Virus record (IMG/VR): IMGVR_UViG_3300017784_007369 | Location: 1-43,965 of that record | Length of the DNA: 43,965 nucleotides | Strand: one strand, 5' to 3' | Origin: a virus | Taxonomy: Duplodnaviria; Caudoviricetes | Part shown: positions 12,567 to 41,074 of the stretch, one piece after another | Layout: every line of letters begins with the position of its first letter | How positions within the stretch are numbered: position 1 is the stretch's first letter | Position numbers and translations under genes: made by a program | Notes under the pieces: generated by a model | The model's input: only the letters and a program-made list of their open reading frames with translations | What the model was told of the DNA's origin: nothing | The model's database searches: none

Positions 12567-12907
12567 TGTCGGAAGAGATAAATTTATATAAAGAAGTATA
12601 CGGTCAGAATACATATAAAAGAGTAGTTGACACACAGTTTACTCAGCTAGTACAACCTACTACTGATCAAGTAGAAGAAGAGGCTACTGTAGAAAGATTT
12701 TTTGAATTATACGAACAGTTATTCTTTCAAATACCGCTTACTGGAGAAATAAATTCACATGAATATTTAGTAAACAGAAGCTCAGAATACCTGGGAGGAT
12801 CAGTTATAACAGATAATGAAAAAGCTTTAATTCAAGAAATTAATAGTTTGAGGCAGCAGTTATTAGAAGCAAATACCAATTTAATAGAGATAAGTAAGCT
12901 AGGATAA
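12566..12907 (+). CDS. Hypothetical structural protein
   Basis: 113 aa, TAATG-coupled on both sides within the tail operon. Confidence 0.6.
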   Translation: MSEEINLYKEVYGQNTYKRVVDTQFTQLVQPTTDQVEEEATVERFFELYEQLFFQIPLTGEINSHEYLVNRSSEYLGGSVITDNEKALIQEINSLRQQLLEANTNLIEISKLG

Positions 12908-15900
12908 TGGAAATAGTAAATGTAAATTATTTAGGCTCTAACCCTGAATTTCAAGAATATAATAATAAAGACATTTCTTTAATTAATTATAATGTTATAT
13001 CAAGAAATTTTGGAAATGGAGATGATTATATAGAATATTTTATATATGACTTAAATAATAATTTACTTGCATCTAATTATAATGTAACAACATACTCGAT
13101 AAAGAACGCTGATGTAGTTCTTAACGAAAGTAATATTCTTGTTTTAAATCCAGATCAAGATGTTATTAATGAAGGATTTGATAGAGGGGCAGTAAATATA
13201 ACCTATAATTTCTTTAGAAAATTATTTAACAGCAGTGAGCTTAGTAAATTCTGGATAGGAGATATATCTAACGACAGAACAGAATTAAGAATATTTAGAC
13301 AAGATCTATCTAATGATGAACTAGAAGCACTATTTAACGAATACAACCTGTATTCATCTACTAAAACATATTATCCAGACTTCTATTTAAATTTCGGTGA
13401 TAATAAAACTATAATAGGAGTTAATATAGCATATGCATTAGTTGACAATCAGGCAAGTATATTAATTAAACTATACGAGCAGCTACCCGATATATTCACC
13501 GAAAAGGATACATTATGGCTAGTTGACAAACTAAGCGAACCTGCTACATATAATATCGATATACAAGTTCCTGCAGAGCAGATCATTAATACTAATGCTT
13601 TAAGAGGACCTAATTACGATATTGAAATCACTGAAAAAGTAGGTCAAACTATAGGATATACATCTTTAAATTCCCTATTTAGTAATTCACTATCATCATC
13701 ATATAGACAGTTAAAAAGTTTAGTAGACGAGAAAGGATACGATATCAACGTCGAATATACTGATTTTAGTAAATTTATACATTTCTCATCTGCAGTTGAA
13801 AGAATTACCAATTTTGCATATAAAATACAATTAATTGAAAGCTATAATTCAGATATATCATCCCTTAATACAGTAGTAGGGAATACCGGAACAATATCTA
13901 GCAGTGTTTCATTACTACAGAATAAAATAGATGATATCGTAGAAAAATTTGACGGATATGAATATTATCTTTATTTCAACTCAGGATCCGAAGTATGGCC
14001 TAAATCATCTAGTAATAAACCATATACACTCTATTCATATACAAGCAGTCAAGCTATTAATTGGATAGGAGGAGTAAATACAGTACCAACAGCAACTACT
14101 CATAGCATATTATATTCCGGATCAGTATACGATTCTAACAATAAAGACTGGCTATTAAATACTATACCATTATACCTAAAAGAAGATCCAAACAATCAAC
14201 CATATCAGATTTTCTTAAGCATGATAGGTCAGCACTTCGATAACATATGGATCTATATAAAAGATATAACTAATAGGTATCAAGCAGATAATAGCTTAGA
14301 TAAAGGGATCTCAAGGGATGAAGTAGGTGATGCTTTAAAGGATTTAGGTATTAAACTATACACTAATACTAACATATCCGATAATATATTTTATTCACTA
14401 ATAGGTACAGGTCCAACCAATAGTCTACTGCCTCCAACCGGCTCAGAATTGATAACAAGCTATGTTACTTCATCTGAAGAAACAATGCCTGCTGATGATA
14501 TTACTAGTGAATACTATAAAAGAATATACCATAATATTCCTTATTTACTTAAAACTAAAGGTACTAGAACAGGACTAAAATCCCTTATTAATTGTTTTGG
14601 TATACCAGATACTATTTTACGAATCAATGAATTTGGAGGATCTGATAAACTAGAATCTACCCCGGATCAAATACAAAATGATTTTATAACATCATATTGG
14701 AATAAAGGATCACAATACGTAAAAGTACCATGGGGCCCTTCTCAATTTGTATTCCTAAGCAGTAGTTATACTAATGTCGTACCCGACACTATTGAGTTTA
14801 ACTTTAGAAATATTTCAGGATACCCTACATCTAGTACTTATTATACTCAATCACTATATCAAGTAGGAACTGATCAGAATCTTCAATTCGGAGTTAATTT
14901 ACAGTACAATCCATCATCTAGTATTCCAGGAGATCCTGATGAATATTATGGTAATGTAAAATTATACCTCAGCGGTAGCTACGGATTCGCTGCATCTAGC
15001 CCTATATCTCTTCCATTCTTTGATCCAACTCAATGGTGGAATATTATTATAAAAAGAGAAATAGGAGGAATCGCAGGATTAAATACTAATATTAATAACA
15101 TTTATACAGTATCAGTAAAAAATGCATTATATAATCAAGACGGAAACGTTAATATAGGATTTACAGGATCTTCAAATATTATAGTATCAGGATCCACTTC
15201 ATCTAGCTATAATAATACCTGGCAATCATACTATACAGGTTCATTATTAATAAATGGGTATTTAGGAGGATACGACAGTAATAACGTATTAGCAGCAAAT
15301 AATACAAGATATCAAGGATTATTACATGAATTTAGATACTGGATAGAACCGTTATCTGAAAGTATTCAATCAATACATGCTCAAAACAATAACGCATACC
15401 CCGGTAACGATCCATCTTCATCACAATATTCATTAATATATAGACTACCTTTAGGTGACACCAAATATTACCCTACATCAGAACAAACGATTATAACTGA
15501 TTATAATTATAACGGAGGTATACTAAGAAAATACAATGTATCTGGAAGTACAATAAACTCAATTCATCCGGCAATTAGCGGTACCTTTTATATTTCATCA
15601 TCCAATATAGAAGTTAGCAATGTAGGATCATTTATAAGCGCCAGTACATCTATTAGTTACGGACTATTCCAACCTACCGGATCTAAAGAATTTATATCAG
15701 AGCAGCTATATAACCTAGTATCAACACCTTCTACAGGATTAAATCAAAAGGTAAATAATAAAATAAATGTTATGCAAGAACAGGAACTATCTGGAAGCCT
15801 GCTATCCAGAGATGTTACTCTTCAAATATATAACGATAACATATCAAGAAATTCATATGATATTGAAGTAGGTTTTTCACCTGCCGACCTAATATCAGAA

Positions 15901-17703
15901 GATATTGCAAATCAATTAGGATACTTTAACATTGATGAGTATATAGGGAAACCTTCAGATCAATACCAAGATGTATATCAAGATTTACAGGCCCTAAGAA
16001 AGGTATACTTTCAAAAATATATTAGCTCATTTAAACTATGGGATTTCGTAAGATTAATTAAATACTACGATAATTCTTTATTTAAAATGATGAAAGATTG
16101 GGTACCTGCAAGAGCAAATCTATCTACAGGTATTATAGTTAAATCTCACATATTAGAAAGACCAAAATATAAGAGAAATGAACCAATAGCTAGTTTCAAT
16201 GAATATACAGGATCAATAGACATGATATCTATATCAGGATCAAATCCTGAAGATGAATATATAAATTCTGATTATATTGCTAATATTACTACATCATTAG
16301 GATATATATCCCAGCCCAAGAATGATAAAAGAGAGCCATTTACCGGCGAATTTGGAGGATCTGAAATATACATAACGAATGGTGAATTTCTAGACTATGA
16401 AATATCTAATATTATAACATCACAGTCAGCTGGATTTGTGACATACTCACTTAATCCGCTATTGAATAATATTTCATCAAGTAGAAAATCAGACAGTATA
16501 TTAGATATAGACTATTCTTCAAACCCGAATATCCCGGTTAATAACGGTATAATAACCGGGGCTATAAATCAATACTACAATAGAGTACAAACACGTGATC
16601 CGGAGCTATTAAACAGCATATATTGGCCCTTTGCTGAGATACAGGATTCTGATTACAGTTCATTTAGATATACTAATATTAGATATAGCGGAAGTAAAAC
16701 TATAAGTAAACAATATAACGTTTATACTAGTGCATCTAGTAACTGGTCAGGAGATGATTCATACGGCAAAACCCCGGCAATCGATCACTATGTTAAAAAA
16801 TTAGGATTATTCACTCAGGTAGAATCTAGCTCTATATTACCGGGAAGAAATAACGTATCTTTAATATATCTAGTAAATCAAGACGGTAATTACGTTTCTC
16901 TAGATGAGAATAATAATAACTGGGAAGAAGTACAAAATACATTTAAGAAAGGGTATTCAACTGTAAATTTATTTGATACAGAAAAGTACTCTAATCAAAA
17001 AACAACTAACGGTCCTAAAAATATATTCGATAGCGGGTATTCTTATTATCCTATACTATATTTTACAGGATCAGCTAGCACTGCAAGTTTTGAAAACTCT
17101 GAAGGAAATTTAGCTTATTATGCTAAAGCTCAAAATTCCGGAAGCACTTATTTTATTAGCGGAAGTTCAGCATTAGATTTCCCGTTAATTACATCTGGAA
17201 GTACAGTACTAGTTTCTAAATTATTTAATCAAGTAATTGAAGGAGCAGAATACTTTAGATCAGGAGGTATAACAGCAGGATCTGAAGCAACATACTCTGT
17301 ACAAGAAACAGCGGCTCATCAAATAAATGCCTCTTTTGATTTTAATATATCAATATCAGATGCAGTTACTACTCCAATGACATGGAAATTAGAAGTACTT
17401 AACGGAAATGTAATAATAGGATCTGATACTGGATCATTTAACGTCGTACCGCCTACACCGTCACTACAAGTATTAGTAAGTAATACTAAAAATGATATAT
17501 GTACAACATATATCCCGCCTATAACCGTTTATTCTAGTACAGATTCTATAAGTATGGGATCTACAATATACACTAGTTCAGCGAAAACACCAGGAACAGA
17601 ATTAACAGGATCATTATTTATAATGTTCTATGGCGGTCTCCAAGATGTATTCGGTATAAATCAATATACAGGAATAATTCAATCTAACGAAGGTCCATGC
17701 TAA
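12907..17703 (+). CDS. Large baseplate/tail structural protein
   Basis: 1598 aa; MIGQHFDNIW and RIYHNIPYLLKTKGT..GL..LINCFGIP (baseplate/P2 gpI-like segment); rich in SGS/TGS. Confidence 0.65.
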   Translation: MEIVNVNYLGSNPEFQEYNNKDISLINYNVISRNFGNGDDYIEYFIYDLNNNLLASNYNVTTYSIKNADVVLNESNILVLNPDQDVINEGFDRGAVNITYNFFRKLFNSSELSKFWIGDISNDRTELRIFRQDLSNDELEALFNEYNLYSSTKTYYPDFYLNFGDNKTIIGVNIAYALVDNQASILIKLYEQLPDIFTEKDTLWLVDKLSEPATYNIDIQVPAEQIINTNALRGPNYDIEITEKVGQTIGYTSLNSLFSNSLSSSYRQLKSLVDEKGYDINVEYTDFSKFIHFSSAVERITNFAYKIQLIESYNSDISSLNTVVGNTGTISSSVSLLQNKIDDIVEKFDGYEYYLYFNSGSEVWPKSSSNKPYTLYSYTSSQAINWIGGVNTVPTATTHSILYSGSVYDSNNKDWLLNTIPLYLKEDPNNQPYQIFLSMIGQHFDNIWIYIKDITNRYQADNSLDKGISRDEVGDALKDLGIKLYTNTNISDNIFYSLIGTGPTNSLLPPTGSELITSYVTSSEETMPADDITSEYYKRIYHNIPYLLKTKGTRTGLKSLINCFGIPDTILRINEFGGSDKLESTPDQIQNDFITSYWNKGSQYVKVPWGPSQFVFLSSSYTNVVPDTIEFNFRNISGYPTSSTYYTQSLYQVGTDQNLQFGVNLQYNPSSSIPGDPDEYYGNVKLYLSGSYGFAASSPISLPFFDPTQWWNIIIKREIGGIAGLNTNINNIYTVSVKNALYNQDGNVNIGFTGSSNIIVSGSTSSSYNNTWQSYYTGSLLINGYLGGYDSNNVLAANNTRYQGLLHEFRYWIEPLSESIQSIHAQNNNAYPGNDPSSSQYSLIYRLPLGDTKYYPTSEQTIITDYNYNGGILRKYNVSGSTINSIHPAISGTFYISSSNIEVSNVGSFISASTSISYGLFQPTGSKEFISEQLYNLVSTPSTGLNQKVNNKINVMQEQELSGSLLSRDVTLQIYNDNISRNSYDIEVGFSPADLISEDIANQLGYFNIDEYIGKPSDQYQDVYQDLQALRKVYFQKYISSFKLWDFVRLIKYYDNSLFKMMKDWVPARANLSTGIIVKSHILERPKYKRNEPIASFNEYTGSIDMISISGSNPEDEYINSDYIANITTSLGYISQPKNDKREPFTGEFGGSEIYITNGEFLDYEISNIITSQSAGFVTYSLNPLLNNISSSRKSDSILDIDYSSNPNIPVNNGIITGAINQYYNRVQTRDPELLNSIYWPFAEIQDSDYSSFRYTNIRYSGSKTISKQYNVYTSASSNWSGDDSYGKTPAIDHYVKKLGLFTQVESSSILPGRNNVSLIYLVNQDGNYVSLDENNNNWEEVQNTFKKGYSTVNLFDTEKYSNQKTTNGPKNIFDSGYSYYPILYFTGSASTASFENSEGNLAYYAKAQNSGSTYFISGSSALDFPLITSGSTVLVSKLFNQVIEGAEYFRSGGITAGSEATYSVQETAAHQINASFDFNISISDAVTTPMTWKLEVLNGNVIIGSDTGSFNVVPPTPSLQVLVSNTKNDICTTYIPPITVYSSTDSISMGSTIYTSSAKTPGTELTGSLFIMFYGGLQDVFGINQYTGIIQSNEGPC

Positions 17704-17721
17704 TAATTAATATAATATAAG

Positions 17722-18468
17722 ATGCCAAATATATCATTTTCGAAAACATTTAATATAGACATACCATCAGTAAATCTTATTCAAGGTAATAATATTAAAT
17801 TTAGATTAGTACTAGATACACCAGCAATAAGTAACTTTACAGCGTCATTAAGTCAAGGGAGTGCTATAGTATCTTCACTAGCTCCTTCAACAGGATATTC
17901 ATCTATTTTTAGTCCCTTTATAGACGCTACAGCAACAGCCGCTACCGATTCAACCATAATATTCACACCGGAAATAACCGACTTTTACGGAAGTACTTAT
18001 CAATTCGAACCTAATCCTGCTGATAATAATATACCAAGTAGCAGCCTATATTCCACTTATGGAGATGTAGACTATCCATTCTTATTAAAACTATTCGATA
18101 TATTTATTGTATATCTCTCTGACGGAACATTTGTTGAGTATAGAATTGTTGATGCTATTATAGTTTCTGATAAATTAGAGGTAACATTAAATAAACCAAT
18201 ATCTAATATATTAAAGACCAATATAACTAATAATACATTTAAAAGAATGTTATTTTTAACAAGAGTAGAAGATGAAACAAATATAATTCTTGAATTTAAG
18301 AAAAAAAGCGGCAAAACATCATATGGATTCGTTATACCAGAAAACATAGACCCTGCAGTACTGAAAAATATAGATATAATATCTAAAGAAGTTCAATCTA
18401 AATTACTAAGCAACCAACCAATAGTTCAGGTAAACAGTATTGATACAATAAATGGCGGAGATTTTTAA
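17722..18468 (+). CDS. Putative tail/baseplate structural protein
   Basis: 248-aa beta-rich ORF inside the structural operon. Confidence 0.5.
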   Translation: MPNISFSKTFNIDIPSVNLIQGNNIKFRLVLDTPAISNFTASLSQGSAIVSSLAPSTGYSSIFSPFIDATATAATDSTIIFTPEITDFYGSTYQFEPNPADNNIPSSSLYSTYGDVDYPFLLKLFDIFIVYLSDGTFVEYRIVDAIIVSDKLEVTLNKPISNILKTNITNNTFKRMLFLTRVEDETNIILEFKKKSGKTSYGFVIPENIDPAVLKNIDIISKEVQSKLLSNQPIVQVNSIDTINGGDF

Positions 18469-18476
18469 AATTATTA

Positions 18477-18485
18477 ATATTTATT
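18477..18485 (+). promoter_or_regulatory. Putative late promoter ATATTTATT
   Basis: Recurrent motif upstream of ORF 18505. Confidence 0.55.
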
Positions 18486-18504
18486 ATAGACAAAACATAA
18501 AAAT

Positions 18505-19161
18505 ATGGGATATTTAGATAATACTAGTGTAGTAGTTGATGCTATACTAACAAAAAAAGGTAGAGAATTATTATCACGAAACGATGGCTCGTTCCGAATT
18601 ACACAATTTTCATTATCAGACGATGAAGTAGATTATACACTATATAATCCAAATCATCCTTCAGGTTCAGCATACTACGGTGAAGCTATAGAAGCTATGC
18701 CGGTATTAGAAGCTTTTCCTGATGATAACGAAATAATGAAATATAAGTTAATAACTTTACCAAGAGGTACTGCTAAAATACCTGTACTTGATATTGGTTA
18801 CACATCTATTAGTCTTAAGCAAGGCGCTTCATTAGCAATTACACCTCAAACATTAAACTATTTAGGTGCAACATCTACCTTCGAGCAATCAGGATATATT
18901 GCAACTATCGGAGACGTTAGGCTAATGTCATCATTTAACGGTACAGGAATTAATACAACTGAGGCTGTTTCTGCTAATTCTACTACAACTATTGGAACTA
19001 ATGTAAGTAAAACAGTAATAGGTGCAACAATCAACCTAACAGCTACTACAGTCAATACATTATTCGGAACACAAACACAACTTCAAACCAATTTAATAGT
19101 TATCGGTAGAGATTCTGGAGCTAGAATTACTATTCCTATTACAATCATTAAACAACAATAA
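18505..19161 (+). CDS. Virion structural protein (tail/baseplate)
   Basis: MGYLDNTSVVVDAILTKKGRELL...ITQFSLSDDEVDY N-terminus, resembling the LT..G..L opening of tail-collar/baseplate proteins. Confidence 0.6.
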   Translation: MGYLDNTSVVVDAILTKKGRELLSRNDGSFRITQFSLSDDEVDYTLYNPNHPSGSAYYGEAIEAMPVLEAFPDDNEIMKYKLITLPRGTAKIPVLDIGYTSISLKQGASLAITPQTLNYLGATSTFEQSGYIATIGDVRLMSSFNGTGINTTEAVSANSTTTIGTNVSKTVIGATINLTATTVNTLFGTQTQLQTNLIVIGRDSGARITIPITIIKQQ

Positions 19162-19173
19162 TAGATATAAAAC

Positions 19174-20217
19174 ATGAGCTTTGTAAATATAGATCCAACA
19201 GACTTCGTAGTAAGTGCAGATTCAGTTACTGCACCAGCTTGGGGTACTAACCTACCAATATTAACACAATTTTATACATCAAGTGTTACTTCAAGTTCGC
19301 CTACATTTTATGTAGATGCATACGCATCTGGAAGTACTGACACTACTCCTCAATTTTCTATCGCTTACGGTCATCTTTTAGGATCAGGCTCAGAGTATTA
19401 TAACGATTTAGTAATAGGGTATAGTCCTTCCAGAACCACATATGGTCAGTACAGAACCCTAGTATATGGGGATGAAAATACCAATTTTAATTTCGGTACA
19501 GGAAATGCTAATTCTAGTGATATATTAGTAATAAATGTCAATAGAAGTAAATATAAAGAAAAACTATTTCTATCAACATTTAATTTATACCTAAGCGGAT
19601 CATCAGGTAGTGTTCAATTAACCAATAATAGCGTAACATCTACAGTAGTTAACTTTTTAGATTGCGGTAGGGTATACGATATCGTAAGCGGAAGTAACGG
19701 GTCGCCAACAACATCTACACCCGTTTCATCATCTAGCGTTTTAGCGGGATATACTCCTTCTGGATCATACGGACTATACCTACCGGATGTAGGTCTAATC
19801 GTAGTAAATCCAAGAGCAATAGCACTACCATTCGTATCAGGAGGTATAGGATTAACCATGGGCACATCTGCTAACACCAATCAAGCAAACTATTTAAAAC
19901 TATATCAAGCTATTAAAGTAGGAGCTAATCCGGTTCTTAATACTGGATTCCAGCTCAATAGTGAAGAAACAATATCGTCAGATTTTATATTTGTCAGGGT
20001 AAGAAATAGTGATTATAATTACAGCACAAACCCGTCTATGATCAGCGGTAGCGGGGAATTAGTATATCCGACATTAATTAATAATCCCCAAACATATATT
20101 ACTACAGTAGGACTATACAATGATAATAACGATCTTTTAGCTGTAGCTAAACTATCTAAACCACTTGTAAAAGATTTTACAAAAGAAGCATTAGTTAGAG
20201 TTAAGTTAAATTGGTAA
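19174..20217 (+). CDS. Virion structural protein with tail-collar/fibre-like C-terminus
   Basis: C-terminal YITTVGLYNDNNDLLAVAKLSKPLVK. Confidence 0.6.
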   Translation: MSFVNIDPTDFVVSADSVTAPAWGTNLPILTQFYTSSVTSSSPTFYVDAYASGSTDTTPQFSIAYGHLLGSGSEYYNDLVIGYSPSRTTYGQYRTLVYGDENTNFNFGTGNANSSDILVINVNRSKYKEKLFLSTFNLYLSGSSGSVQLTNNSVTSTVVNFLDCGRVYDIVSGSNGSPTTSTPVSSSSVLAGYTPSGSYGLYLPDVGLIVVNPRAIALPFVSGGIGLTMGTSANTNQANYLKLYQAIKVGANPVLNTGFQLNSEETISSDFIFVRVRNSDYNYSTNPSMISGSGELVYPTLINNPQTYITTVGLYNDNNDLLAVAKLSKPLVKDFTKEALVRVKLNW

Positions 20218-20230
20218 ATCGTAATGAATA

Positions 20231-21439
20231 ATGAGTTCTGCTGTAAAATCAATAAGATCTTCAGATGTAAGTACCGTTCCCTATAGAGTAAATAAACAAT
20301 TTACTTTTGAAAGTAGTTCATTTTCACAAAATGGAATTATTGGTTATTTAGGATATCTTGAAACAGGATCTGCACTAGACCAATTAGATGAATATCAGCT
20401 GATATATTACTCTATAAGGCAGTTATACTATGGAGGAGAAATTACAAGCTCTATACTAATAGATAATACAAGCGGATCACACTATAATAACTACCAGCAA
20501 TCTACAGCTGCGTCAGGAACGTTTGAATACGAAATAAAAAACTTTCCAACAGAAAATAGATCTGAAATAAGAGCGTTATCAATCCCGCAATCATTATACG
20601 GTGAAAAATTAAAGCCAAGTACTTTTATATTACAGGACATTACAGGCAGCTATTATATAGTAGATGATAGTAATGGTAACTTATTCGATATTATAAGCTT
20701 ACCTAATCCATATGTTGTTAACGGTAAAATTCAATCAAATTATTTTGAAAATGTAAATATTAATGCGCTACCGAAAGTAGGAAATGTATTTTACGCACAC
20801 GGTATTGCTGTTATCACAAACCAAAATTATTTAAACATATTTCCAAAAGATTGTACTCTAACCGGAGGATCCGCCTGTGTTGTTATTATTCCAACTACAA
20901 CCACAACTACAACTGCAGCACCAACTACAACAACTACAACTGCAGCACCAACTACAACAACTACGTTGACTCCAACCGTTACACCTACGGCTACACCAAC
21001 AACTACGTTGACTCCAACAACTACGTTGACTCCAACCGTTACTCCAACAACTACGTTGACTCCAACCGTTACTCCAACAACTACGTTGACTCCAACCGTT
21101 ACTCCAACAGCTACACCTACGGTTACACCGACTACAACCACAACTACAACCTGTGCTTCAAATTGTGAATTATATGATATATTCATTTCATCAACCGACC
21201 TTAACGCATCATATAATAATACTGTTATTGTTGATTATAAAACCTGTTTCGGTGATGGTGGTTCAAGTGCTACAGGAAGTATTTTATATTATGTTTCTGG
21301 AACATATGTTAATGCTATATGTGTTCAAGCATTTGCTTTAGAACCTCTTGTAGATATATACTATTATTTCCCATCAGGATCTAAAGTTACTGCTGCAAAT
21401 TCATCCTTTAACAATACAGCAATAGATTGTTGTTATTAA
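20231..21439 (+). CDS. Structural protein with Thr/Pro mucin-like linker and Cys-rich C-terminal domain
   Basis: N-terminal part resembles ORF 19174 (VGNVFYAHGIAVIT vs YGLYLPDVGLIVVN), then a PT/TT repeat, then a Cys-containing tail. Confidence 0.65.
   Translation: MSSAVKSIRSSDVSTVPYRVNKQFTFESSSFSQNGIIGYLGYLETGSALDQLDEYQLIYYSIRQLYYGGEITSSILIDNTSGSHYNNYQQSTAASGTFEYEIKNFPTENRSEIRALSIPQSLYGEKLKPSTFILQDITGSYYIVDDSNGNLFDIISLPNPYVVNGKIQSNYFENVNINALPKVGNVFYAHGIAVITNQNYLNIFPKDCTLTGGSACVVIIPTTTTTTTAAPTTTTTTAAPTTTTTLTPTVTPTATPTTTLTPTTTLTPTVTPTTTLTPTVTPTTTLTPTVTPTATPTVTPTTTTTTTCASNCELYDIFISSTDLNASYNNTVIVDYKTCFGDGGSSATGSILYYVSGTYVNAICVQAFALEPLVDIYYYFPSGSKVTAANSSFNNTAIDCCY
20891..21151 (+). repeat. Coding tandem repeat (PTTTLTPTVT / PTTTTTTAA units)
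   Basis: 30-bp unit ccaacaactacgttgactccaaccgttact occurs about 3 times near-perfectly, plus 27-bp ccaactacaac(c/a)(a)..actgcagca units. Confidence 0.9.
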
Positions 21440-21470: not shown

Positions 21471-21755
21471 ATGTCATATACTCTATCATTTAAATCAGAA
21501 ACAACACTATACGAGGTTCAAGTAAGATGTCATATAAATGAAAACGAATTTAATTTAACACAAAACCCTTCAGCAGTTTCAGGCTCATCAGGATCATTAT
21601 ATAATTTTGTTACAGGCTCTGATTTTGATCCATACGTAACTTCAGTCGGGCTGTATAGCCCAGCCAATGAATTATTAGTAGTAGGAAAACTAGCTCAACC
21701 GTTCAGAATGCCTTCTAATACAGACGTTACATTTATAATAAGATACGATAGTTAA
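21471..21755 (+). CDS. Small structural protein, paralogous to the C-terminus of ORF 19174
   Basis: FNLTQNPS...YVTSVGLYSPANELLVVGKLAQP vs YNYSTNPS...YITTVGLYNDNNDLLAVAKLSKP. Confidence 0.7.
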   Translation: MSYTLSFKSETTLYEVQVRCHINENEFNLTQNPSAVSGSSGSLYNFVTGSDFDPYVTSVGLYSPANELLVVGKLAQPFRMPSNTDVTFIIRYDS

Positions 21756-22210
21756 TGAATAATTGGTTACATAAAAGCTCATTAGGTCACACCTTTGAAT
21801 ATAAAGAAATAGAAGATTTCCAGCAAGAATATATTGGATTTGTATATAAAATAACTAATATTATTACTAACAAAATATATATAGGAAAAAAATCATTATA
21901 TTCCAATATAAACAAAAAACTTACTAAAAAAGAACTAGGAGAGTACACAGGTCCAGGTAGAAAGCCAACTAAAAAGCTAGTAACATCCGAAAGTAATTGG
22001 AAAAAATATTACGGATCATCAAAAGAATTACTACAAGATATCAAAGATATAGGTGAAAATAAATTCACTAGAGAGGTATTACATCTATGTAAAAGTAAAA
22101 AGCAATTAACCTATTATGAGATACATTATCAAGTAATTCACAATGTATTAGAATTAGATTCATATAACGATAACATACTAGGAAAATTCTATAGAAAAGA
22201 TTTAGTTTGA
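21755..22210 (+). CDS. GIY-YIG nuclease-family protein (Seg-like)
   Basis: GFVYKITNIITNKIYIGKK...YYGSS...FTREVL...YNDNI. Confidence 0.8.
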   Translation: MNNWLHKSSLGHTFEYKEIEDFQQEYIGFVYKITNIITNKIYIGKKSLYSNINKKLTKKELGEYTGPGRKPTKKLVTSESNWKKYYGSSKELLQDIKDIGENKFTREVLHLCKSKKQLTYYEIHYQVIHNVLELDSYNDNILGKFYRKDLV

Positions 22211-23991: not shown

Positions 23992-24000
23992 ATATTTATT
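23992..24000 (+). promoter_or_regulatory. Putative late promoter ATATTTATT
   Basis: Heads the nucleotidyltransferase operon. Confidence 0.55.
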
Positions 24001-24013: not shown

Positions 24014-24976
24014 ATGATCAAATTAAACAGCATACTTAAGCAAATGATCCTAGAAGGAGGAAATATTTTCGGTGATACTTCACCTATTAAAAAAGAAAAT
24101 ATTGATCCTACTTTAAATGTATTTGCAACTGAATTATCAAATATGTTTCCTAAAAAAGTTGCATCTTTTAGAAAATTTGAAACACTAGGATCAGTAGGCA
24201 AAAAACCAGTATCTGGAGATATAGATCTAGCATATGATATTGAAAACCTAATGCCAGGAGGGAAACCCGATCTAGTAGGATGGGGAATAGATCCATATGA
24301 GTTTAAACAATCAGTAGAAAAAATACAAAAAAGAGCTAGAACAGCTACCCTGGAACAATCCCAGCTAAGAGCTATGGTTGAATTTATAGGTAATAAAATT
24401 AATGAACAATCAGATATAATTCAAACAGATATAAAAAAATCTGGCGCTGGATCTTTATTTTGCAAAGTAATCCAATACGATATTGTAGGAGACGAAACCA
24501 ATAAAACAGTACAAGTTGACATAAATATAGGTGATCCTAAATGGCTAAGATTTAGCTACTATTCAGCTACGTACAAAGGTAACGTAAAAGGCCTTCATAG
24601 AACACAGTTACTTGTTGCACTATTTACTCATAAAGATAAAATGTTTAAACATGCACAAGGAGTATTCAATAAAGATACTAGAGAATTAGAGGCAAAAACA
24701 CCAGAAGAAACATTAGAATTACTTAATAAATTATATGGTATCAGATTAGATCAAAATACTTTAGACGATTATTTTAAATTAATGGATGTTCTTAAAAAGA
24801 ATCTAACAGACGAAGATCTACACGGTATATACGATATATATCTTAAAATCCTAGACTCTACCAGAGCAGATATACCAGAAGATCTACAGCAATACTGGAT
24901 TCAAAATAAAGAAAGATTAGGACTAAAAGGTAAATTTTTACCAGATGATTCAAAACTAAAACAATATATTCAATAA
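24014..24976 (+). CDS. Pol-beta superfamily nucleotidyltransferase with MIKL..IL..E leader
   Basis: LGSVGKKPVSGDIDL (GS...DxD) plus VQVD third carboxylate. Confidence 0.7.
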   Translation: MIKLNSILKQMILEGGNIFGDTSPIKKENIDPTLNVFATELSNMFPKKVASFRKFETLGSVGKKPVSGDIDLAYDIENLMPGGKPDLVGWGIDPYEFKQSVEKIQKRARTATLEQSQLRAMVEFIGNKINEQSDIIQTDIKKSGAGSLFCKVIQYDIVGDETNKTVQVDINIGDPKWLRFSYYSATYKGNVKGLHRTQLLVALFTHKDKMFKHAQGVFNKDTRELEAKTPEETLELLNKLYGIRLDQNTLDDYFKLMDVLKKNLTDEDLHGIYDIYLKILDSTRADIPEDLQQYWIQNKERLGLKGKFLPDDSKLKQYIQ

Positions 24977-27015
24977 TGTCAGGTTCAGCAGGAGGTAATA
25001 GAGTAACAAGGCAAGCAGTTGAAAAAACTGTTAACACCTATATTGAAAAAGTATTAAAGAAATTTAAAGCTTTTAAAGATGCAAAGATTTCCGGATCATA
25101 TAACACCGGAACTAAAGAAGATTTTGGCGATATAGATCTTATAGTAACTTTTGAAGGAGACGATAAGAAAGCGTTAAAGAAAGAATTAGTAGATTTTTTT
25201 AATACTATTCCTGATGATACGATAGTTCCTTTTAAAAGTGAAAAGTATAAAGGTAAAAAATCACTTTCTACTGGAGAAATCGTAACTGTTTTATATCCTA
25301 TAGAAGGAACAGAGGATCAATTCGTTCAAATAGATAATATGGTATCATTATCTGACGAAGAGTCTACTTTTAAAAAATCTTTCCTAGATTATCCTGCTGA
25401 AATTCAAGGATTATTATTAGGACTAGTAAAAATAGTTTTATTAGAAGAGAATCCACAAGAGATATTTAAAAGACTAGGTATTAAAAATTTACCTAAATTA
25501 GAGCAAGGTCAAGAATATGAATTTAACCTATCTAGTGCAGGTCTAACTTTACGCAAAGTAACACTTACTCCAGAGTTTAGAGAAACAGCTAGAGAAGATA
25601 TGTGGAAAAGTTCCAATTGGGAAGATGTTAAAAAACTACTAAAAAATTACAATATAGATAGTGACTTTGAAGAACTACTTAACATTATAGTTAAAAACAC
25701 TAAAAATCAACGTTCAAAAAACCGTATAAAAGGTATATTTAAGTCAATGATAACAGTAAAATCAGGAGAAGTAAATACACCTAAAGGAGATAAAAAGACC
25801 CAATCAATAAAGAAAGTAGAAGATTTACTAGAATTTATGAACGGGATAGGTACAATTATTGCAGAAGATATAGTATATCAACCAGGAATATGTTTTTATC
25901 CAGGAGGATTTAAACCACCTCACAAAGGCCACTTTGAAGCAGCTAAGGATCTAGCATCTAGGAACTATATAACTCAAGTAAACGTCATTATAAGTCCTAA
26001 AGAAAGAGACGGAATAACTGCAAAGGAAAGTTTACAAATATGGAAATACTATTTACAAGCAGAACCTAATCCTAAAATTGCAGTTAAAGTAGCTGAATCA
26101 GTATCACCTATTAAAGACATATATGATTTTATTGCACTTCACCCTGAATTAGACCCAGTATATGTAGCAGGAGGTAAAGATGAAGTAGATGATCTAGGAT
26201 ATTTTAAATCGCTTACAAAAGCATTTGGAGAAAGAGTAATACCAATACCTATTGAAGAGAAATTTGGTAGAATATCAGCCTCTTATACAAGAAATCAATT
26301 AAGAGCAGGTGATATTGAAGCATTTAAGCAAACCCTTCCAGATTCAGTTATACAGAAAGGTTTTTTTGATGATATATTTAAGCTATTATCACCTATTATT
26401 AAAGAAAACTTTGAAATTAACTTATCAACTAATGAAAATAGTACTATAAAGAAGTATTTAGAAGAATTTGCAGAATACTGCTATGATGTTCTAGATATTA
26501 ATAATAGACCATTAATAAAAGTTATAACAGACGATTCATATACAGCACAATATAATAGCTTTGGAGGGTATTCCCCTTCAGAAAATCTAATATACATCTC
26601 AGTAAATAAAAGAAATCTAGCAGATATATTAAGAAGCCTATGTCATGAAATAGTTCATTCAAGGCAAAACGAAATTAATATATTAACTCAAGAAGACGGT
26701 GATACTGGCTCCGATATTGAAAATCAAGCTAACTCAATATCAGGTGTTATAATGAGACATTACGGTCAACTAAAACCAGAGATATTTAAACTAAGTCAGG
26801 TTTTAAGTGAAGGAATGACAAAAGTTAAAACAGTACAAAGTATTGTTAAAAAGCACCATATTAAAAATGAAAATTCATTAATGGATGAGTTAAAGAAAGG
26901 TATAGAAGTAGAAAAGGAACATACAACAAATAAAAAAGAGGCAGTTAAGATAGCTTTAGATCACCTATATGAAGATCCTAAATACTACACTAAGCTATCA
27001 TCACTAAATTTATAA
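24976..27015 (+). CDS. Multidomain protein: Pol-beta NTase + HIGH-type (cytidylyltransferase-like) NTase + HEXXH zincin-like domain + C-terminal DPxYY module
   Basis: SGSYNTGTKEDFGDIDL/VQID; YPGGFKPPHKGH...ISASYTR; CHEIVHSRQ...ENQAN; KGIEVEKEH...IALDHLYEDPKYYTKL. Confidence 0.7.
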   Translation: MSGSAGGNRVTRQAVEKTVNTYIEKVLKKFKAFKDAKISGSYNTGTKEDFGDIDLIVTFEGDDKKALKKELVDFFNTIPDDTIVPFKSEKYKGKKSLSTGEIVTVLYPIEGTEDQFVQIDNMVSLSDEESTFKKSFLDYPAEIQGLLLGLVKIVLLEENPQEIFKRLGIKNLPKLEQGQEYEFNLSSAGLTLRKVTLTPEFRETAREDMWKSSNWEDVKKLLKNYNIDSDFEELLNIIVKNTKNQRSKNRIKGIFKSMITVKSGEVNTPKGDKKTQSIKKVEDLLEFMNGIGTIIAEDIVYQPGICFYPGGFKPPHKGHFEAAKDLASRNYITQVNVIISPKERDGITAKESLQIWKYYLQAEPNPKIAVKVAESVSPIKDIYDFIALHPELDPVYVAGGKDEVDDLGYFKSLTKAFGERVIPIPIEEKFGRISASYTRNQLRAGDIEAFKQTLPDSVIQKGFFDDIFKLLSPIIKENFEINLSTNENSTIKKYLEEFAEYCYDVLDINNRPLIKVITDDSYTAQYNSFGGYSPSENLIYISVNKRNLADILRSLCHEIVHSRQNEINILTQEDGDTGSDIENQANSISGVIMRHYGQLKPEIFKLSQVLSEGMTKVKTVQSIVKKHHIKNENSLMDELKKGIEVEKEHTTNKKEAVKIALDHLYEDPKYYTKLSSLNL

Positions 27016-27621: not shown

Positions 27622-28269
27622 ATGCCTGCAAAAAGTAAAGCACAACAAAAATTCATGGGTATGGTTCATGCATCACAAAAAGGTGAAATGAAACCTAAAG
27701 GTGCAGTATCAAAAGCTGCTAAATCTATGACTAAAAAATCAGCAACTGATTTTGCCTCAACTAAACATAAAGGACTACCTGAAAAATTAAAAGAAGGTGT
27801 AGGAAAAGGAGAACCAATTTTCTTTTATTACGTTTTAGAACCAGAAGATCATACATCTAAAATATCAGACCTAGTACATGGATTACATGTAATTCAGTTC
27901 GGAAAACAAATGGGTGAAGGTAAATTTGAAAATGACAAAGGAATAGTCGGTAAAATTTATGGTTATTACATGGATGAAGAAGAAGCTAAAGAGTCTGCTA
28001 AGGAATTAGTTAAAGGTCTTCATGAAGCTGCATCTACATTAGAGATAAAAAAACATGAAGTATCTACAGCTCTACAAAAAAAGATCGATGAGTTACAGAA
28101 AAAAGCAGAAGAACATCTAAGATTAGCTAAAAAAGAACCTGAAAATGGTGAAAGGCATCATGATGAAGCTCAAGCAGTTTTGGCTAGAATTAAAGTATTA
28201 AGAAAAAAGCATAAAATGGTAGAGGGATCTAAAAAAGAAATTATACCATTAGAAGAAACTGAAAAATAA
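27622..28269 (+). CDS. Hypothetical protein with basic N-terminal module MPAKSKAQQKF...KHKGLP (DUF3008-like)
   Basis: Basic N-terminal module ending at LKE, followed by an unrelated helical domain. Confidence 0.55.
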   Translation: MPAKSKAQQKFMGMVHASQKGEMKPKGAVSKAAKSMTKKSATDFASTKHKGLPEKLKEGVGKGEPIFFYYVLEPEDHTSKISDLVHGLHVIQFGKQMGEGKFENDKGIVGKIYGYYMDEEEAKESAKELVKGLHEAASTLEIKKHEVSTALQKKIDELQKKAEEHLRLAKKEPENGERHHDEAQAVLARIKVLRKKHKMVEGSKKEIIPLEETEK

Positions 28270-28631
28270 TGGAACCAATTAATCAATTAGTATCAACCTT
28301 ATTTGCCTCTAGAACGCAAGCACATATATTTCATTTACAAACTAGATCATTTGCTCAGCATAAGGCATTACAGAAATATTATGATAGTATTATCGATATC
28401 GTAGATGGGCTTATCGAATCATATCAAGGAAAATATGGTATTATTAGAGGATATACATCACCTGCAGTATTCAGAGAGGATGACGATACAGTAAAATACT
28501 TTGAAGGATTAGTTAAATTTGTAGAATTAAATAGAGAAAGATTACCTCAAGATAGTTATTTACAAAATCAAGTAGATGAAATAGTATCTTTGATTGAAGC
28601 TACATTATATAAATTAAAAAATCTTGCATAA
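28269..28631 (+). CDS. Ferritin/Dps-like four-helix protein
   Basis: HIFHLQT.SFAQHKAL..YYD......D.LIESYQG pattern of phage ferritin-like proteins. Confidence 0.65.
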   Translation: MEPINQLVSTLFASRTQAHIFHLQTRSFAQHKALQKYYDSIIDIVDGLIESYQGKYGIIRGYTSPAVFREDDDTVKYFEGLVKFVELNRERLPQDSYLQNQVDEIVSLIEATLYKLKNLA

Positions 28632-30205: not shown

Positions 30206-30559
30206 ATGAAAAAACAAATATTAAGCGAAGAATTTAGCAGAATGCAAAAACTAGCCGGTATTATTAGTGAAAATAATTATGATTTTAATTTGAAAGCTGC
30301 AAAAGATCCTAATGCTGTTTTTGGTCTATATAGATATAGTGATGATGAAAAAGCATATTTTCAAGATGTAATAAATTTATTAACCGATCGATCTGACTTT
30401 AATACAAAATTACCAAATTATAATTTAACCGACTTAGTTGAAAAACTAAACGATAGCATTAAGCCAGACGAATTATGGCAAGCATTATCTAGAGCTTATA
30501 AAAGAAATATAATACCTATTAAAGCTGCTAATATTTTATTTAATAATATAAAAAAATGA
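30206..30559 (+). CDS. Hypothetical protein with MKKQILSEEFSRMQKLAGI leader
   Basis: Leader shared with ORF 32981. Confidence 0.65.
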   Translation: MKKQILSEEFSRMQKLAGIISENNYDFNLKAAKDPNAVFGLYRYSDDEKAYFQDVINLLTDRSDFNTKLPNYNLTDLVEKLNDSIKPDELWQALSRAYKRNIIPIKAANILFNNIKK

Positions 30560-30873
30560 TAAAATTAACAGATATATTAAAAGAAGTAAAAGAAACGTTT
30601 GAAAATTTCGCTAGTACTAGATTAAAAGGTGCTGAAAAAATTGCTGATACTACTCAAGAGGCTGGTGGATTATCTTTATTAACTTATAAACATTACAAAG
30701 TTAAATTACCATACTATAAAAAAGCAGCTGCAGGTAAATTCGACCCGGAAGAAGCTAAAAAAGAATTTCAAGAAACTTTAAAAAGTATATCATTAGATAT
30801 GACTCAAACCGGATTTCAAATAGAAGTTGGACGTTTAGAAGTATTAGGTGAACTACTTATAGAAAACAAATAA
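30556..30873 (+). CDS. Hypothetical protein with MIKLTDILKE leader
   Basis: Leader consensus; ATGA and TAATG coupling. Confidence 0.65.
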   Translation: MIKLTDILKEVKETFENFASTRLKGAEKIADTTQEAGGLSLLTYKHYKVKLPYYKKAAAGKFDPEEAKKEFQETLKSISLDMTQTGFQIEVGRLEVLGELLIENK

Positions 30874-31643
30874 TGATAAAATTAGCCGACCTAATATCGG
30901 AGATTATGTTAGCGGAACAGATGGTTCAATCTGACGCATGGAAAGCTATACAAAAAACACTCGATATTCTTAATAAAAAAAATAAAGTATTATTACTAGC
31001 CTGTTCTAATAGATATAATTGGGATAAAAATAATATAGATGTTCCAAAATCTACAATTATAGCAATGTATCTTAAAGAACAATTAGGAGATAAAGCAGTT
31101 CTAATAGATATACCGGAGTTAAATATAGTTCCTTGTGAAGGAAACGTTTCAAGAAAAGATGGAAATACTTGCGGGGTACTAAAATCAATGCTTAAAGATA
31201 AAAGTAAAAATCCATCCGGAAATCATAGATGCTGGGCAAGCTTTAATAACCCGGATGATGAATTATGGAAAGTATCTAAAGAATTATTTGAATCAGATTC
31301 AGTTATATTCTTTAGTTCAGTAAGATGGGGACAAACTAATATGTACTATCAAAATCTAATCGAAAGATTAACTTGGATAGAAAATAGACATACAAATCTA
31401 GGTGAATCTAATTTAGTTAAAAATATTGAAACAGGATTTATCTGCGTTGGTCAGAATTGGAACGGTGAAGAGGTTAGTGAAACACAGAAGAAAGTACACG
31501 AGTTTTACGGATTTAAACCTAATGACGATTTATATTGGAATTGGCAGTATACAAAAGATGTATATGACGAGTCTAAGGAATCATATAAAAAGGCCTATTC
31601 TAAATTTATAAAAGATACCAAAATACCTGTTAATAATGATTAA
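30873..31643 (+). CDS. Flavodoxin-like / NADPH-dependent FMN reductase (iron-sulfur flavoprotein-like) with leader
   Basis: KVLLLACSNR...KST...LNIVPCEG...C...C...DDELW....LFESDSVIFFSSVRWG......LIERL. Confidence 0.7.
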   Translation: MIKLADLISEIMLAEQMVQSDAWKAIQKTLDILNKKNKVLLLACSNRYNWDKNNIDVPKSTIIAMYLKEQLGDKAVLIDIPELNIVPCEGNVSRKDGNTCGVLKSMLKDKSKNPSGNHRCWASFNNPDDELWKVSKELFESDSVIFFSSVRWGQTNMYYQNLIERLTWIENRHTNLGESNLVKNIETGFICVGQNWNGEEVSETQKKVHEFYGFKPNDDLYWNWQYTKDVYDESKESYKKAYSKFIKDTKIPVNND

Positions 31644-32718
31644 ATTAATTGATATATTAAAAGAAGTATCTGGCGGATTAATCGGTCCTTTCTTTCATGA
31701 AACCAGTAAAGAAAACGTGAAAGGCATTGTATATAATGGTTTAGAGCCAAGAGGAGGTAGTAATTCATACGATGCCGTATCTATATCACCAGCAAGTCCT
31801 TCACAAATGTATGGAGATACAGTTGTAGAAGTTTATCTTACCACCCATCAATTTATTAGAGCTATAAAAGATACTTATAATACAATGTCTGCTGATTTAC
31901 ATATGTTAGATAAAAAAGATGTAAAGTTAATGGAGAAATTAATTGATAACTCTATTACTAATGATGAATATCAAGAATTATTACATAGAGCATTACATAA
32001 TGAAGGCTTTGCTTCAGGAGAGATATTAGTAAGAGAATATATTCCACCATCACAAATTAAAGCACCAGATCTTAACGAAGAATCAAAAGGTCTTTGGTAT
32101 TATATTAATCGCAAGAAGAAATTAGGAATAAAATCTACACCTAAAAATTCCAAAGAGTATAAAGCTGCTGTAAAAGCAGGTAAAGGACTATCTAATGAAG
32201 GAATAGATAAAATTAAATATACAGAGCCTAACTTCGAATATGAATGGAAAGAAGCACTTAGATATCCAGAATTCGAAGAAATGGGTAAAGAGGAATGGAT
32301 AAAAACAGCAGAAAAAGGAAATATAATAAATTATTCTCAAATAAAAGATAATTTAGGAAATGTTAATTTAGATTTTAAAAAATTAGAAGAACCTAAAAAG
32401 AAGCGTTTTATATCTGCTTTTAATAAAGGAATAATCGAAATGCCAATAGCAGTTAAATTTTCAGATAATGATTATGATCTAGTTGCAGGAAATACAAGAA
32501 TATCGGGATTAGTTAAAAACGGAATCGATCCAAAAATATGGATAGTAGATATTAGTAATATTCAAGAAGGAATCGATGATCCTGTAGAACCAGGTATCTT
32601 AAAAAAAAGATTAGGTAAGCTATCTTGTACTAGAGTTAAGGCTGAAAAGGCAAAATTAAAAGATAAAGGTACTCACTACGCAAAAGCACTACAAAGATAT
32701 ATAAACTATCACTGTTAA
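31636..32718 (+). CDS. Multidomain protein: leader + ADP-ribosyltransferase-like domain + basic module + ParB/Srx-like domain + basic module
   Basis: FHETSKENVKGIVYNGLEP...SISP...YGDTVVEV...EILV...IPPSQI; MPIAVK....YDLVAGNTR; LNE/SNE/IQE at junctions. Confidence 0.55.
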   Translation: MIKLIDILKEVSGGLIGPFFHETSKENVKGIVYNGLEPRGGSNSYDAVSISPASPSQMYGDTVVEVYLTTHQFIRAIKDTYNTMSADLHMLDKKDVKLMEKLIDNSITNDEYQELLHRALHNEGFASGEILVREYIPPSQIKAPDLNEESKGLWYYINRKKKLGIKSTPKNSKEYKAAVKAGKGLSNEGIDKIKYTEPNFEYEWKEALRYPEFEEMGKEEWIKTAEKGNIINYSQIKDNLGNVNLDFKKLEEPKKKRFISAFNKGIIEMPIAVKFSDNDYDLVAGNTRISGLVKNGIDPKIWIVDISNIQEGIDDPVEPGILKKRLGKLSCTRVKAEKAKLKDKGTHYAKALQRYINYHC

Positions 32719-32723
32719 TAATA

Positions 32724-32984
32724 ATGAATCCATATAAAGATTTAGAAGTTACAGATTTTTACATAATAAGAGAATTTTCTCAAGATATAGATCCAATAGA
32801 ATTAAAGTGGCACAGGGATAATGAAGATCGAATATTGGAAATTCAAGGCAATACTGACTGGAAGATCCAGCTAGAGAATAATCTACCATTATCTATCAAT
32901 CAACCGATATTTATACCTAGAGGATCATACCATAGAGTTATAAAAGGTACTAATAACTTGAAATTAAAAATATATAAAAAATGA
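32724..32984 (+). CDS. Small cupin-fold protein
   Basis: WHRDNEDR...IFIPRGSYHRVIKG. Confidence 0.65.
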   Translation: MNPYKDLEVTDFYIIREFSQDIDPIELKWHRDNEDRILEIQGNTDWKIQLENNLPLSINQPIFIPRGSYHRVIKGTNNLKLKIYKK

Positions 32985-33391
32985 AAAAACAATTAATTAA
33001 CGAAGCATTTAGACTTCAGCAGCTAGCAGGTATTATGCCTATTAATTCTTTAAATGAAAAATTAGATGCTGTTGGACATGAAGATTCTGATGTCAATAAC
33101 GATGGATATAAAGATGAAAGTGATAAATATATACTTAATCATCGTAAAGTTATTAGTAAAAATATAAGTGAAGGTGAAGATCATGAAGTAGCAATGGCTC
33201 AAGCAAGTCTAAAAGCTATTATTAGTTCAGCTTCTCAATTAATGAATAAAATAGGTCAGGAAGAAATTAACATACCCGCCTGGATCCAGGATCACATTAC
33301 CAATTCTGAAAACTATATCGAACAAGCCAATCAAGGATATCATCAATTATGTGATAAAGGAGAAGAAGGTGTTGAAGTATCTATAATGTAA
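32981..33391 (+). CDS. Hypothetical protein with MKKQLINEAFRLQQLAGI leader and EF-hand-like module
   Basis: LNE then KLDAVGHEDSDVNNDG..DESDKY; ISE then GEDHEVAMA...PAWIQDHIT. Confidence 0.6.
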   Translation: MKKQLINEAFRLQQLAGIMPINSLNEKLDAVGHEDSDVNNDGYKDESDKYILNHRKVISKNISEGEDHEVAMAQASLKAIISSASQLMNKIGQEEINIPAWIQDHITNSENYIEQANQGYHQLCDKGEEGVEVSIM

Positions 33392-33921: not shown

Positions 33922-34848
33922 ATGATAAAATTGAGTAATATATTAAAAGAAGTTATGGAGAAAGAAGAGCAGTATAATGATAATACTGAATCTACTTATG
34001 ATAAAGTTATAAAAGATGCTTTAAAAGTCGATCAAATACCATTAGTACAAGGAAAGTATAAATTAGGAGATAATAAAAGCCCGCAAGGTCCTGATTTAGA
34101 AACATTCATTAAATTATATAAAGTATCTCCACCTATATCAGGAAAAGAAGTAGGATCAGCAGGTACAAAAGGTTCAGGGAACGGAGAAATAGCTCTTTAT
34201 TGGTTATTTAAATATCAAACCCCAAGCATCCCAGCTAGAGATTCACGAGGATCAGATAATCCGGATCTAATAATAGATGGACATGGAGTTGAAGTTAAAT
34301 CAATGGAAAGCAATGATCTAGCTTTAGGTAGATTCGGTCATGAAGAATATAAAGAAAATATATTATTACTAAATGATATATTTAGTTTATACGCCTTATC
34401 ATCAGTAATAGCTCACAAAAAACCTAGAATTCCTACAGTTAGTAATTTTAATCAAAACGAATTAAAAGAAGCTTTAAAAAGCGTTATAGAATTATATAAT
34501 GATGAAAAATTAAAAGAGCTTAAAGATTCATTTCCTATTATCGGAAATATATATAAAAAGACTGAAATTATTTTTAATAAACTATCATTAGAAGGTAATT
34601 TTGATGAAGTAGAAGCAGGCGGGGCAGTACTTAAAAGGCTTTTAACTACTAAACTAACACGTAAATTAAATCTTAATTCTAAAGCACCAGGGTATATTGT
34701 TAACATCAGCTCTTCAGGAGATATAAAATATTATAGAGTTACTATAGAAATGTTAGAAAATCTGGATAATAAAAAAATTATGGACGGTAATAATGTAACC
34801 GCTCAGCAATCATTCTTATATATTAAACCACAAAATCTTTTTAAATAA
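33922..34848 (+). CDS. Putative PD-(D/E)XK nuclease with MIKLSNILKE leader
   Basis: GNGEIAL...DNPDLIIDGHGVEVKS (E...PD...EVK). Confidence 0.5.
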   Translation: MIKLSNILKEVMEKEEQYNDNTESTYDKVIKDALKVDQIPLVQGKYKLGDNKSPQGPDLETFIKLYKVSPPISGKEVGSAGTKGSGNGEIALYWLFKYQTPSIPARDSRGSDNPDLIIDGHGVEVKSMESNDLALGRFGHEEYKENILLLNDIFSLYALSSVIAHKKPRIPTVSNFNQNELKEALKSVIELYNDEKLKELKDSFPIIGNIYKKTEIIFNKLSLEGNFDEVEAGGAVLKRLLTTKLTRKLNLNSKAPGYIVNISSSGDIKYYRVTIEMLENLDNKKIMDGNNVTAQQSFLYIKPQNLFK

Positions 34849-39566: not shown

Positions 39567-39571
39567 CGTAC

Positions 39572-39580
39572 ATATTTATT
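39572..39580 (+). promoter_or_regulatory. Putative late promoter ATATTTATT
   Basis: Upstream of ORF 39600. Confidence 0.55.
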
Positions 39581-39599
39581 ATTAGTATATACTATTTAC

Positions 39600-40463: not shown

Positions 40464-41074
40464 ATAACGATAAGGTAAAAGATTTTATTAAGAAGCAGGT
40501 ATTAGAGTATATAAAGGTTGAAGAAGAGTCCTCAACTGGAGGTGAAGGTTATTTAGGTAAGACTGCATATAATCCAAATAAGAAAGCACAAGGAACAGCA
40601 CATAATTATTTAAAAAGTAAGATGGGCTGGAAAGAAGCACCATCTATCCCTAATCGGCCCTCTGAAATGATTGACTATCAGCAACTGTTTGAAGACGATA
40701 ATGAACTAGAAACTATTCAAGATGAAGAAACAGGAGATCCTATAATAAGACATAAAATAACTGATAAAGATAAAGAAACCATAAAGAAAGCTCAAGCATT
40801 AATAGCGAAAGAGAAAGAGTTACAAAAAGAAAATTACTCTAGATTTAAAAATGAAACTAAAACTAGATCTAAATCAGAGCATTATCATAAAGCAATTTTA
40901 GAAGTTAAAAAAAGAACTAACGAGCTTAATAAATTATTAGAATACGCTATTAGACTAAAACAAGAATTAAACCAGGTTGATGAAATTAAGTCATCTAGAC
41001 ATACTTTAAATGCATTAGATAAGGTTACCGAAAACATTAAAGAGGTATATATCAAAGCTAAAAAATTAAAGTAA
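40460..41074 (+). CDS. Hypothetical head-region protein
   Basis: 204 aa with a coiled-coil C-terminus; VLE/LFE sites. Confidence 0.55.
   Translation: MNNDKVKDFIKKQVLEYIKVEEESSTGGEGYLGKTAYNPNKKAQGTAHNYLKSKMGWKEAPSIPNRPSEMIDYQQLFEDDNELETIQDEETGDPIIRHKITDKDKETIKKAQALIAKEKELQKENYSRFKNETKTRSKSEHYHKAILEVKKRTNELNKLLEYAIRLKQELNQVDEIKSSRHTLNALDKVTENIKEVYIKAKKLK

Follow-up and report, generated by a model that had tools for sequence, protein, structure and literature searches.

The adjoining genes A and B, located in a 43,965-nucleotide stretch of the Caudoviricetes record IMGVR_UViG_3300017784_007369 (hereafter the window), encode proteins with invariant nucleotidyltransferase residues, and their predicted models resemble family X DNA polymerases (PolX). 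The two genes form an obligate pair, and L/I-x-E sites are present at the borders of the domains that they encode. We interpret A and B as PolX-like enzymes that would be packed into the phage head, injected and used to extend broken 3' ends, more probably of DNA than of RNA. The probability of this reading as a whole is estimated at about 0.4.

Open reading frame (ORF) A spans positions 24014-24976 (320 amino acids) and ORF B positions 24976-27015 (679 amino acids). The ORFs overlap by one base within TAATG, as described in an earlier annotation made from the letters alone (the original prediction). They are divided as follows.

24014-24055, plus strand: leader of A (MIKL..IL...ILE), resembling capsid-targeting leaders, with an L/I-x-E site at its end
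24056-24976, plus strand: mature A, predicted minimal PolX-like transferase with palm, thumb, helical insert and helical tail (D69, D71, D169)
24976-25833, plus strand: B domain 1, predicted second minimal PolX-like transferase, ending in LLE286 (D52, D54, D120)
25834-25866, plus strand: linker with the second predicted cut site, IAE297
25867-26406, plus strand: HIGH-superfamily nucleotidyltransferase, similar to nicotinamide mononucleotide (NMN) adenylyltransferase (NMNAT) and phosphopantetheine adenylyltransferase (PPAT), with HKGH at 316-319 and ISAS..R439, ending in IKE477
26407-26811, plus strand: zincin-like metallopeptidase domain with HEIVH at 557-561 and E582, ending in LSE612
26839-27003, plus strand: DUF5661, optional last module of B (residues 622-676, Pfam E 1.4e-13)

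The original prediction is borne out in that the pair contains two transferases of the Pol-beta superfamily, a zincin motif and a domain of the HIGH class. A contains G59-S60-x7-G68-D69-I-D71 and V-Q167-V-D169, and B contains G40-S41-x9-G51-D52-I-D54 and V-Q118-I-D120. Both ORFs thus harbor the proposed VQ(V/I)D motif, whereas the proposed GS-x7/8-GDIDL pattern applies to A but not to B, where the spacing is nine residues. GGFKPPHKGH (25903-25932), ISAS (26272-26283) and HEIVH (26644-26658) were also located correctly, and Glu582 follows downstream. The C-terminal DUF5661, which is missing from most relatives, and the leader and cut sites typical of head cargo are features beyond that annotation. 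The catalytic Asp triad is invariant among dereplicated homologues, with D69/D71/D169 of A in 81/81 and D52/D54/D120 of B in 86/86 sequences, and the HExxH and the later Glu of the zincin are invariant in 31/31 homologues. This indicates that the motifs did not arise by chance. Moreover, A carries an invariant KGLHRTQ-type motif, and domain 1 of B has a family-specific basic C-terminal helical part with invariant R250, E265, K270 and K274.

According to the predicted models, A and B almost certainly share a PolX-like fold of palm and thumb. The palm is assembled in both models, as demanded by a check on the active site that was set beforehand, and is followed by a PolX thumb. The top eight VIA rows for each of the two models were PolX enzymes, with 158-183 aligned residues including the thumb, and the BFVD match for the A model was a viral PolX. 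The closest fold is DNA polymerase X of African swine fever virus (ASFV; PDB 5hr9), and the palm-thumb core is shared with Pol beta, Pol lambda and TdT. Alignment to Pol beta begins with the very first residues of the models, at positions 142-145 of that enzyme, and so leaves no room for the 8-kDa lyase, the finger or the PHP domain of bacterial PolX, which are likewise not present in the ASFV enzyme. Unlike these polymerases, A and B are two paralogues that always occur together. They also differ from known PolX by extra helical tails (after about residue 254 in A and residue 231 in B), which the fold lists hardly cover, by an invariant free GG/SG N-terminus and by an altered nucleotide-pocket helix. 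The template arginine of family X enzymes is R283. The corresponding position, assigned by motif register, is hydrophobic in A and B, and an invariant K152 occurs one turn later in B. The deoxynucleotide pocket of a family X DNA polymerase comprises 271-YFTGSDIFN-279 (PMC9226535); by motif register only, this region reads F136-L-D-Y-P-A-x-x-Q144 in B and is marked by an insertion and R196 in A.

Sequence comparison alone gave few links. BLAST found no match between A and B, and profile-profile comparison connected them weakly, via the palm (probability 27%, E 7e-4). When solved structures were searched by sequence and by profile, neither A, full-length B, the B domain nor the zincin had a significant match. 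PHROGs contains no family for A or B, and locus scans with P0312 and P0276 found nothing on the B domain. The assignment to the Pol-beta superfamily in the original prediction holds. The models match the palm and thumb of PolX and look PolX-like rather than similar to the CD-NTases, CCA-adding enzymes or MNT with which a comparison had been suggested. CD-NTases and cGAS-like proteins match about 100 residues of the palm; their helical second lobe does not align with A and B, whose own second lobe corresponds to the thumb of PolX. It is thus very improbable that A and B produce a cyclic or linear oligonucleotide signal, or a decoy, against CBASS-like defence, and this earlier suggestion has little support. 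Terminal uridylyltransferases (TUTases) and CutA align mostly with the palm only, whereas PolX enzymes align with palm and thumb. A and B are probably active in nucleotidyl transfer to 3' ends of nucleic acids. The thumb favours DNA as the substrate, which is proposed tentatively.

Sequence features also suggest that A and B are very probably head cargo processed by a prohead protease. The T4 protease gp21 cleaves after L/I-X-E and thereby removes short capsid-targeting leaders (PMC9026906). The leader of A comprises 14 residues and ends in ILE/GG. Similar leaders are present in five further genes, up to position 34848, and nowhere else among the 48 ORFs. The window encodes a candidate for the processing enzyme.

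42873-43505, plus strand: T4-type prohead protease, predicted processing enzyme, starting with ...LIE8 (Pfam Peptidase_S77, E 3e-26)

A comparable site, LIE-9, is found in gp21 of T4 (PMC9026906). Among distinct N-termini of A, 59/64 show E/GG and 5/64 Met/GG, and 53/56 A starts at divergent loci fit this rule; of the other three, two show no motif and one is at the edge of a contig. In all A-B fusions (11/11) an L-x-E replaces the start Met of B directly before SG. Of 150 representative B starts, 103 have Met, 17/18 non-Met starts are preceded by Glu, and 22 fall outside the pattern used. As cleavage and Met removal yield the identical N-terminus, these data suggest that a free GG/SG N-terminus matters for function. 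Within B, cut sites are predicted at E286, E297, E477 and E612. In relatives the density of [LI]xE before the HIGH domain is 5.8 per 100 residues (176/180 sequence windows) compared to 0.83 inside it, a difference of about 7-fold. Before the zincin it is 3.7 per 100 residues (120/152 sequence windows), about 5-fold higher than inside; values inside the domains are 0.7-0.8. Autoprocessing by the zincin was rejected as the main route, because the zincin is not always present and the cut sites are those expected of the prohead protease.

The internal head proteins IPI-III and Alt of T4 possess a capsid-targeting propeptide, are cleaved by gp21 at L/I-X-E and are ejected (PMC9026906). A and B resemble this system in the short leader ending in L/I-x-E, in the T4-type prohead protease of the genome and in having enzymes as cargo. 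They differ in that several enzymes are chained in a polyprotein with internal sites, in being PolX-like and in the unrelated leader sequence. A and B are a real, conserved variant within an established enzyme family, and their proposed mode of delivery is likewise an established one. In polyvalent proteins, too, a single polypeptide of variable make-up joins disparate enzyme domains to a zincin peptidase (PMC5512222). However, their Pol-beta nucleotidyltransferase is described there as a minimal firmicute type, unlike A and B, whose processing is best explained by prohead protease sites and not by the zincin. Among the Pfam matches listed for 54 B-chain proteins, which had been picked for diverse extra segments, there was no ArdC-N, MuF or LPD domain.

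Virion proteomics of relatives is consistent with packaging. AUZ94877 of Agrobacterium phage Atu_ph07 is a homologue of A (25% identity, HMM E 9e-19, Foldseek E 2e-12) and corresponds to gp65, an identification based on agreement between the masses calculated for 13 neighbouring genes and those in the supplement of PMC6102473. In the virion table, gp65 is represented by 10 peptides and 36.8% coverage, compared to 10 peptides and 40.6% for the major capsid protein, where the meaning of the columns was inferred and the stock had been purified with polyethylene glycol (PMC6102473). This homologue has no leader. A cytidylyltransferase was detected with three peptides in CsCl-purified virions of cyanophage S-CREM2, for which the authors allowed for contamination (PMC10665884); its family is linked to the HIGH domain only via the HIGH domain of a B-fused relative (E about 1e-15).

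In a separate observation, gp54-63 of Atu_ph07 (11579-20327) are ten tandem paralogues with M[RK]WxQLxE-type leaders and, by eye, motifs resembling ADP-ribosyltransferases (ART). Of these, gp57-63 are among the virion table rows examined (PMC6102473).

Searches within length limits yielded 1,720 homologues of A and 1,132 of the B domain, and a B profile found 214 clusters at 50% identity. Pairing was assessed in three sets of 80 loci, the best of 471 A loci, of 313 B loci and of 256 divergent B loci; these sets overlap and include close kin. B was adjoining or fused in 75/80 A loci; three others were cut by contig ends and two contained HIGH and zincin domains but no B. Among B loci, A was adjacent in 69, fused in 7 and nearby in 3, and one contig started inside B (79/80 with A). 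All divergent B loci contained A (80/80), while a HIGH domain was detected in only 38/80. These counts confirm the co-occurrence expected for related phages. The remainder of the B chain varies from 598 to over 1,500 residues and includes, in relatives, GNAT, ART-like, DUF6934, further Pol-beta and sigma-4 modules. Because pairing is near-constant while the rest of the chain varies, the unit is A plus B, obligate also in divergent phages, and the HIGH and zincin domains are swappable passengers. The combination of four domains in one operon is therefore present as originally described, but it is not one machine. A single four-domain machine was rejected as the HIGH domain went undetected in many divergent loci and can stand before A, after B or apart from both.

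The family looks phage-restricted, since one weak match of 37 residues was all that emerged when 185,579 cellular genomes were scanned by pattern, a method of limited reach. Matches in the ESM Atlas were unnamed viral clusters only.

L055 and L060 contain A followed by a HIGH-zincin gene with B undetected, as rare exceptions to pairing. One B polyprotein (P0294) has a sigma-70 region 4 domain at its end (Pfam E 1e-15). A HAD nucleotidase lies downstream of B in Flavobacterium phage immuto (23633-24232), and HAD-like modules occur inside some B polyproteins (P0173, P0175).

By its profile matches, the HIGH domain belongs with the adenylyltransferases of NMN or phosphopantetheine type, as a generic NMNAT/PPAT-like enzyme, and forms a separate passenger. 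It shows the HIGH motif and a second, ISAT-type motif, both in common with the "cytidyltransferase" of T4-like cyanophages and the NadM-PPAT family. Unlike that family it has no Nudix or kinase fusion, and no NadV was found. The original prediction proposed that such a domain restores NAD+. That the HIGH domain alone acts as an NMNAT early in infection is unlikely, although its best matches among solved structures are NMNATs (1f9a, E 8e-7), gp088 of immuto is annotated as NMN adenylyltransferase, and phage NadM and NadR are described in PMC9503650. PPAT scores equally well, and all NCBIfam cut-offs were missed (20.9 bits versus 112 for TIGR00482; 18.1 versus 103 for TIGR01510). Furthermore, the Gly of HxGH varies. 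According to PMC9503650 all phages with NadM also have NadV; NadV/NAPRTase (Nampt) was found in 0/5 relatives searched but in 8/14 controls, which leaves this proposal with little support. The ligands of the zincin are intact, and it is likewise a separate passenger of the polyprotein; 18/31 members match DUF6782, below the cut-off.

In the mechanism proposed for A and B, A and the B polyprotein would enter the prohead, where the prohead protease would release the enzymes at L/I-x-E, and would be injected together with the genome. They would then extend broken 3' ends by nucleotide addition, probably reading a template only weakly, and so might protect or mend the incoming genome against host nucleases. 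Some observations favour other readings. In the jumbo phages Atu_ph07 and G010, A lies behind an overlapping KxDG ligase-like gene and no B is present; such a partner favours RNA. In the window, A and B stand downstream of primase and exonuclease genes, and B and some versions of A start with Met and have no leader. The latter points would fit ordinary late repair polymerases that act in the cell during replication or packaging and are not injected. This is an improbable alternative, given that L/I-x-E is kept at every fusion border, that five neighbours share the leader, that an A homologue occurs in a virion proteome (PMC6102473) and that phage-coded repair partners were not found. ATP- or NAD-dependent DNA ligase, RNA ligase (PF09414, PF09511) and AP endonuclease IV were detected in 0/4 Immutovirus-type genomes (94-100% complete or cultured), in contrast to the repair partners of known PolX, and uracil-DNA glycosylase (UDG) in 0/10 genomes. 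Controls were positive for these families, for PF09511 in two phages only.

Repair of RNA ends, for example of tRNA cut by host anticodon nucleases, by injected A and B that would put back missing nucleotides in the style of RlaP and an RNA ligase is an unlikely but live rival, and to this extent the earlier suggestion of RNA or tRNA end repair stands. The alignment with the PolX thumb and the lack of RNA ligases in the Immutovirus-type genomes argue against it, as does the ligase-like gp66 of Atu_ph07, which was not among the virion table rows examined (PMC6102473). As larger genomes with A and B contain ATP-dependent DNA ligase (3/5) and RNA ligase (1/5), B does not exclude ligases in general. 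B occurs in 8/10 genomes tested, none of which matched the ligase-like gene; that gene is confined to the other two. This split is a lead only, because the ten genomes were chosen, Atu_ph07 and G010 are related and the single-protein query had limited reach. A weak search with a profile from two seeds found no ligase-like gene in 227 loci, and DUF6267 was found in 0/10 genomes in a search without positive control. Based on the split, a two-step mending of ends by virion-delivered enzymes can be imagined. A would lengthen the 3' end, largely without reading a template, and B, a PolX-fold protein with a basic C-terminal domain, would replace the ligase and join or cap the end, possibly after the HIGH domain has adenylated a 5' phosphate. 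This scheme is quite improbable.

A further alternative is that A and B are injected nucleotidyltransferases that modify host proteins, comparable to ADP-ribosylation by Alt of T4. GNAT- and ART-like domains among the fellow cargo would suit such a role, which has also been proposed for the Pol-beta nucleotidyltransferases of polyvalent proteins (PMC5512222). It fits the fold less well than end extension and is hardly probable.

Literature searches found no paper on the A/B family. PMC7824862, PMC9503650 and PMC5512222 cover RlaP, CCA enzymes, phage NAD salvage and polyvalent proteins; the excerpts of these papers do not describe the family, which their supplements might list. If end extension by injected A and B is correct, widespread large aquatic T4-like phages inject ready-made PolX-type enzymes together with their DNA, an early counter-defence for which no description was found. 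The PolX fold family is already well studied. With about 300 residues and an altered nucleotide pocket, A and B are candidates for small terminal transferases, and packaging, cleavage and activity are directly testable in the cultured phage vB_FspM_immuto_2-6A.

The window is a fragment of a T4-like myophage (27% complete) and encodes baseplate proteins, primase, exonuclease, terminase and a T4-type portal in addition to the prohead protease. Its host is likely a Bacteroidota bacterium, since the terminase is 57% identical to that of immuto and the order primase-exonuclease-A-B...terminase-portal is common to both. The pair is represented in immuto by gp089 and gp088, which are 52% and 49% identical to A and B, respectively, and carry no annotation beyond hypothetical protein or NMN adenylyltransferase. 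The late-type motif noted in the original prediction ahead of the pair is present.

23993-23999, plus strand: TATTTAT, 21 bases 5' of the start of A, recurring ahead of many structural and cargo genes

Of 18 copies in the window, 11 have a start codon no more than 80 bases away (a raw count without shuffle control), and the motif is likely a late promoter element.

Further genes in the cargo region carry the leader. The product of 31636-32718 shows, by eye, ADP-ribosyltransferase-like and ParB-like parts with xE sites between them and has no Pfam or PHROG match. That of 33922-34848 has a PD-(D/E)xK nuclease-like motif and that of 30873-31643 resembles flavodoxin-like FMN reductases, both by eye and without a family match. 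A QxLAGI motif occurs near the start of two small proteins of this region (30206-30559 and 32981-33391) and at the end of an immuto protein encoded just before the major capsid gene (39403-40644), likely the scaffold, which makes it a candidate for a second head-targeting motif. The cargo cluster also contains a DUF5856/phrog_858 protein (28269-28631), which we take to be ferritin/Dps-like. Outside this cluster, the GIY-YIG (SegE) protein at 21755-22210 falls into phrog_447, labelled "NAD synthetase". This label, also borne by immuto gp100 at the corresponding place, is likely a propagated misannotation. Finally, a protein of the structural region (20231-21439) harbors a long Thr/Pro-rich repeat.
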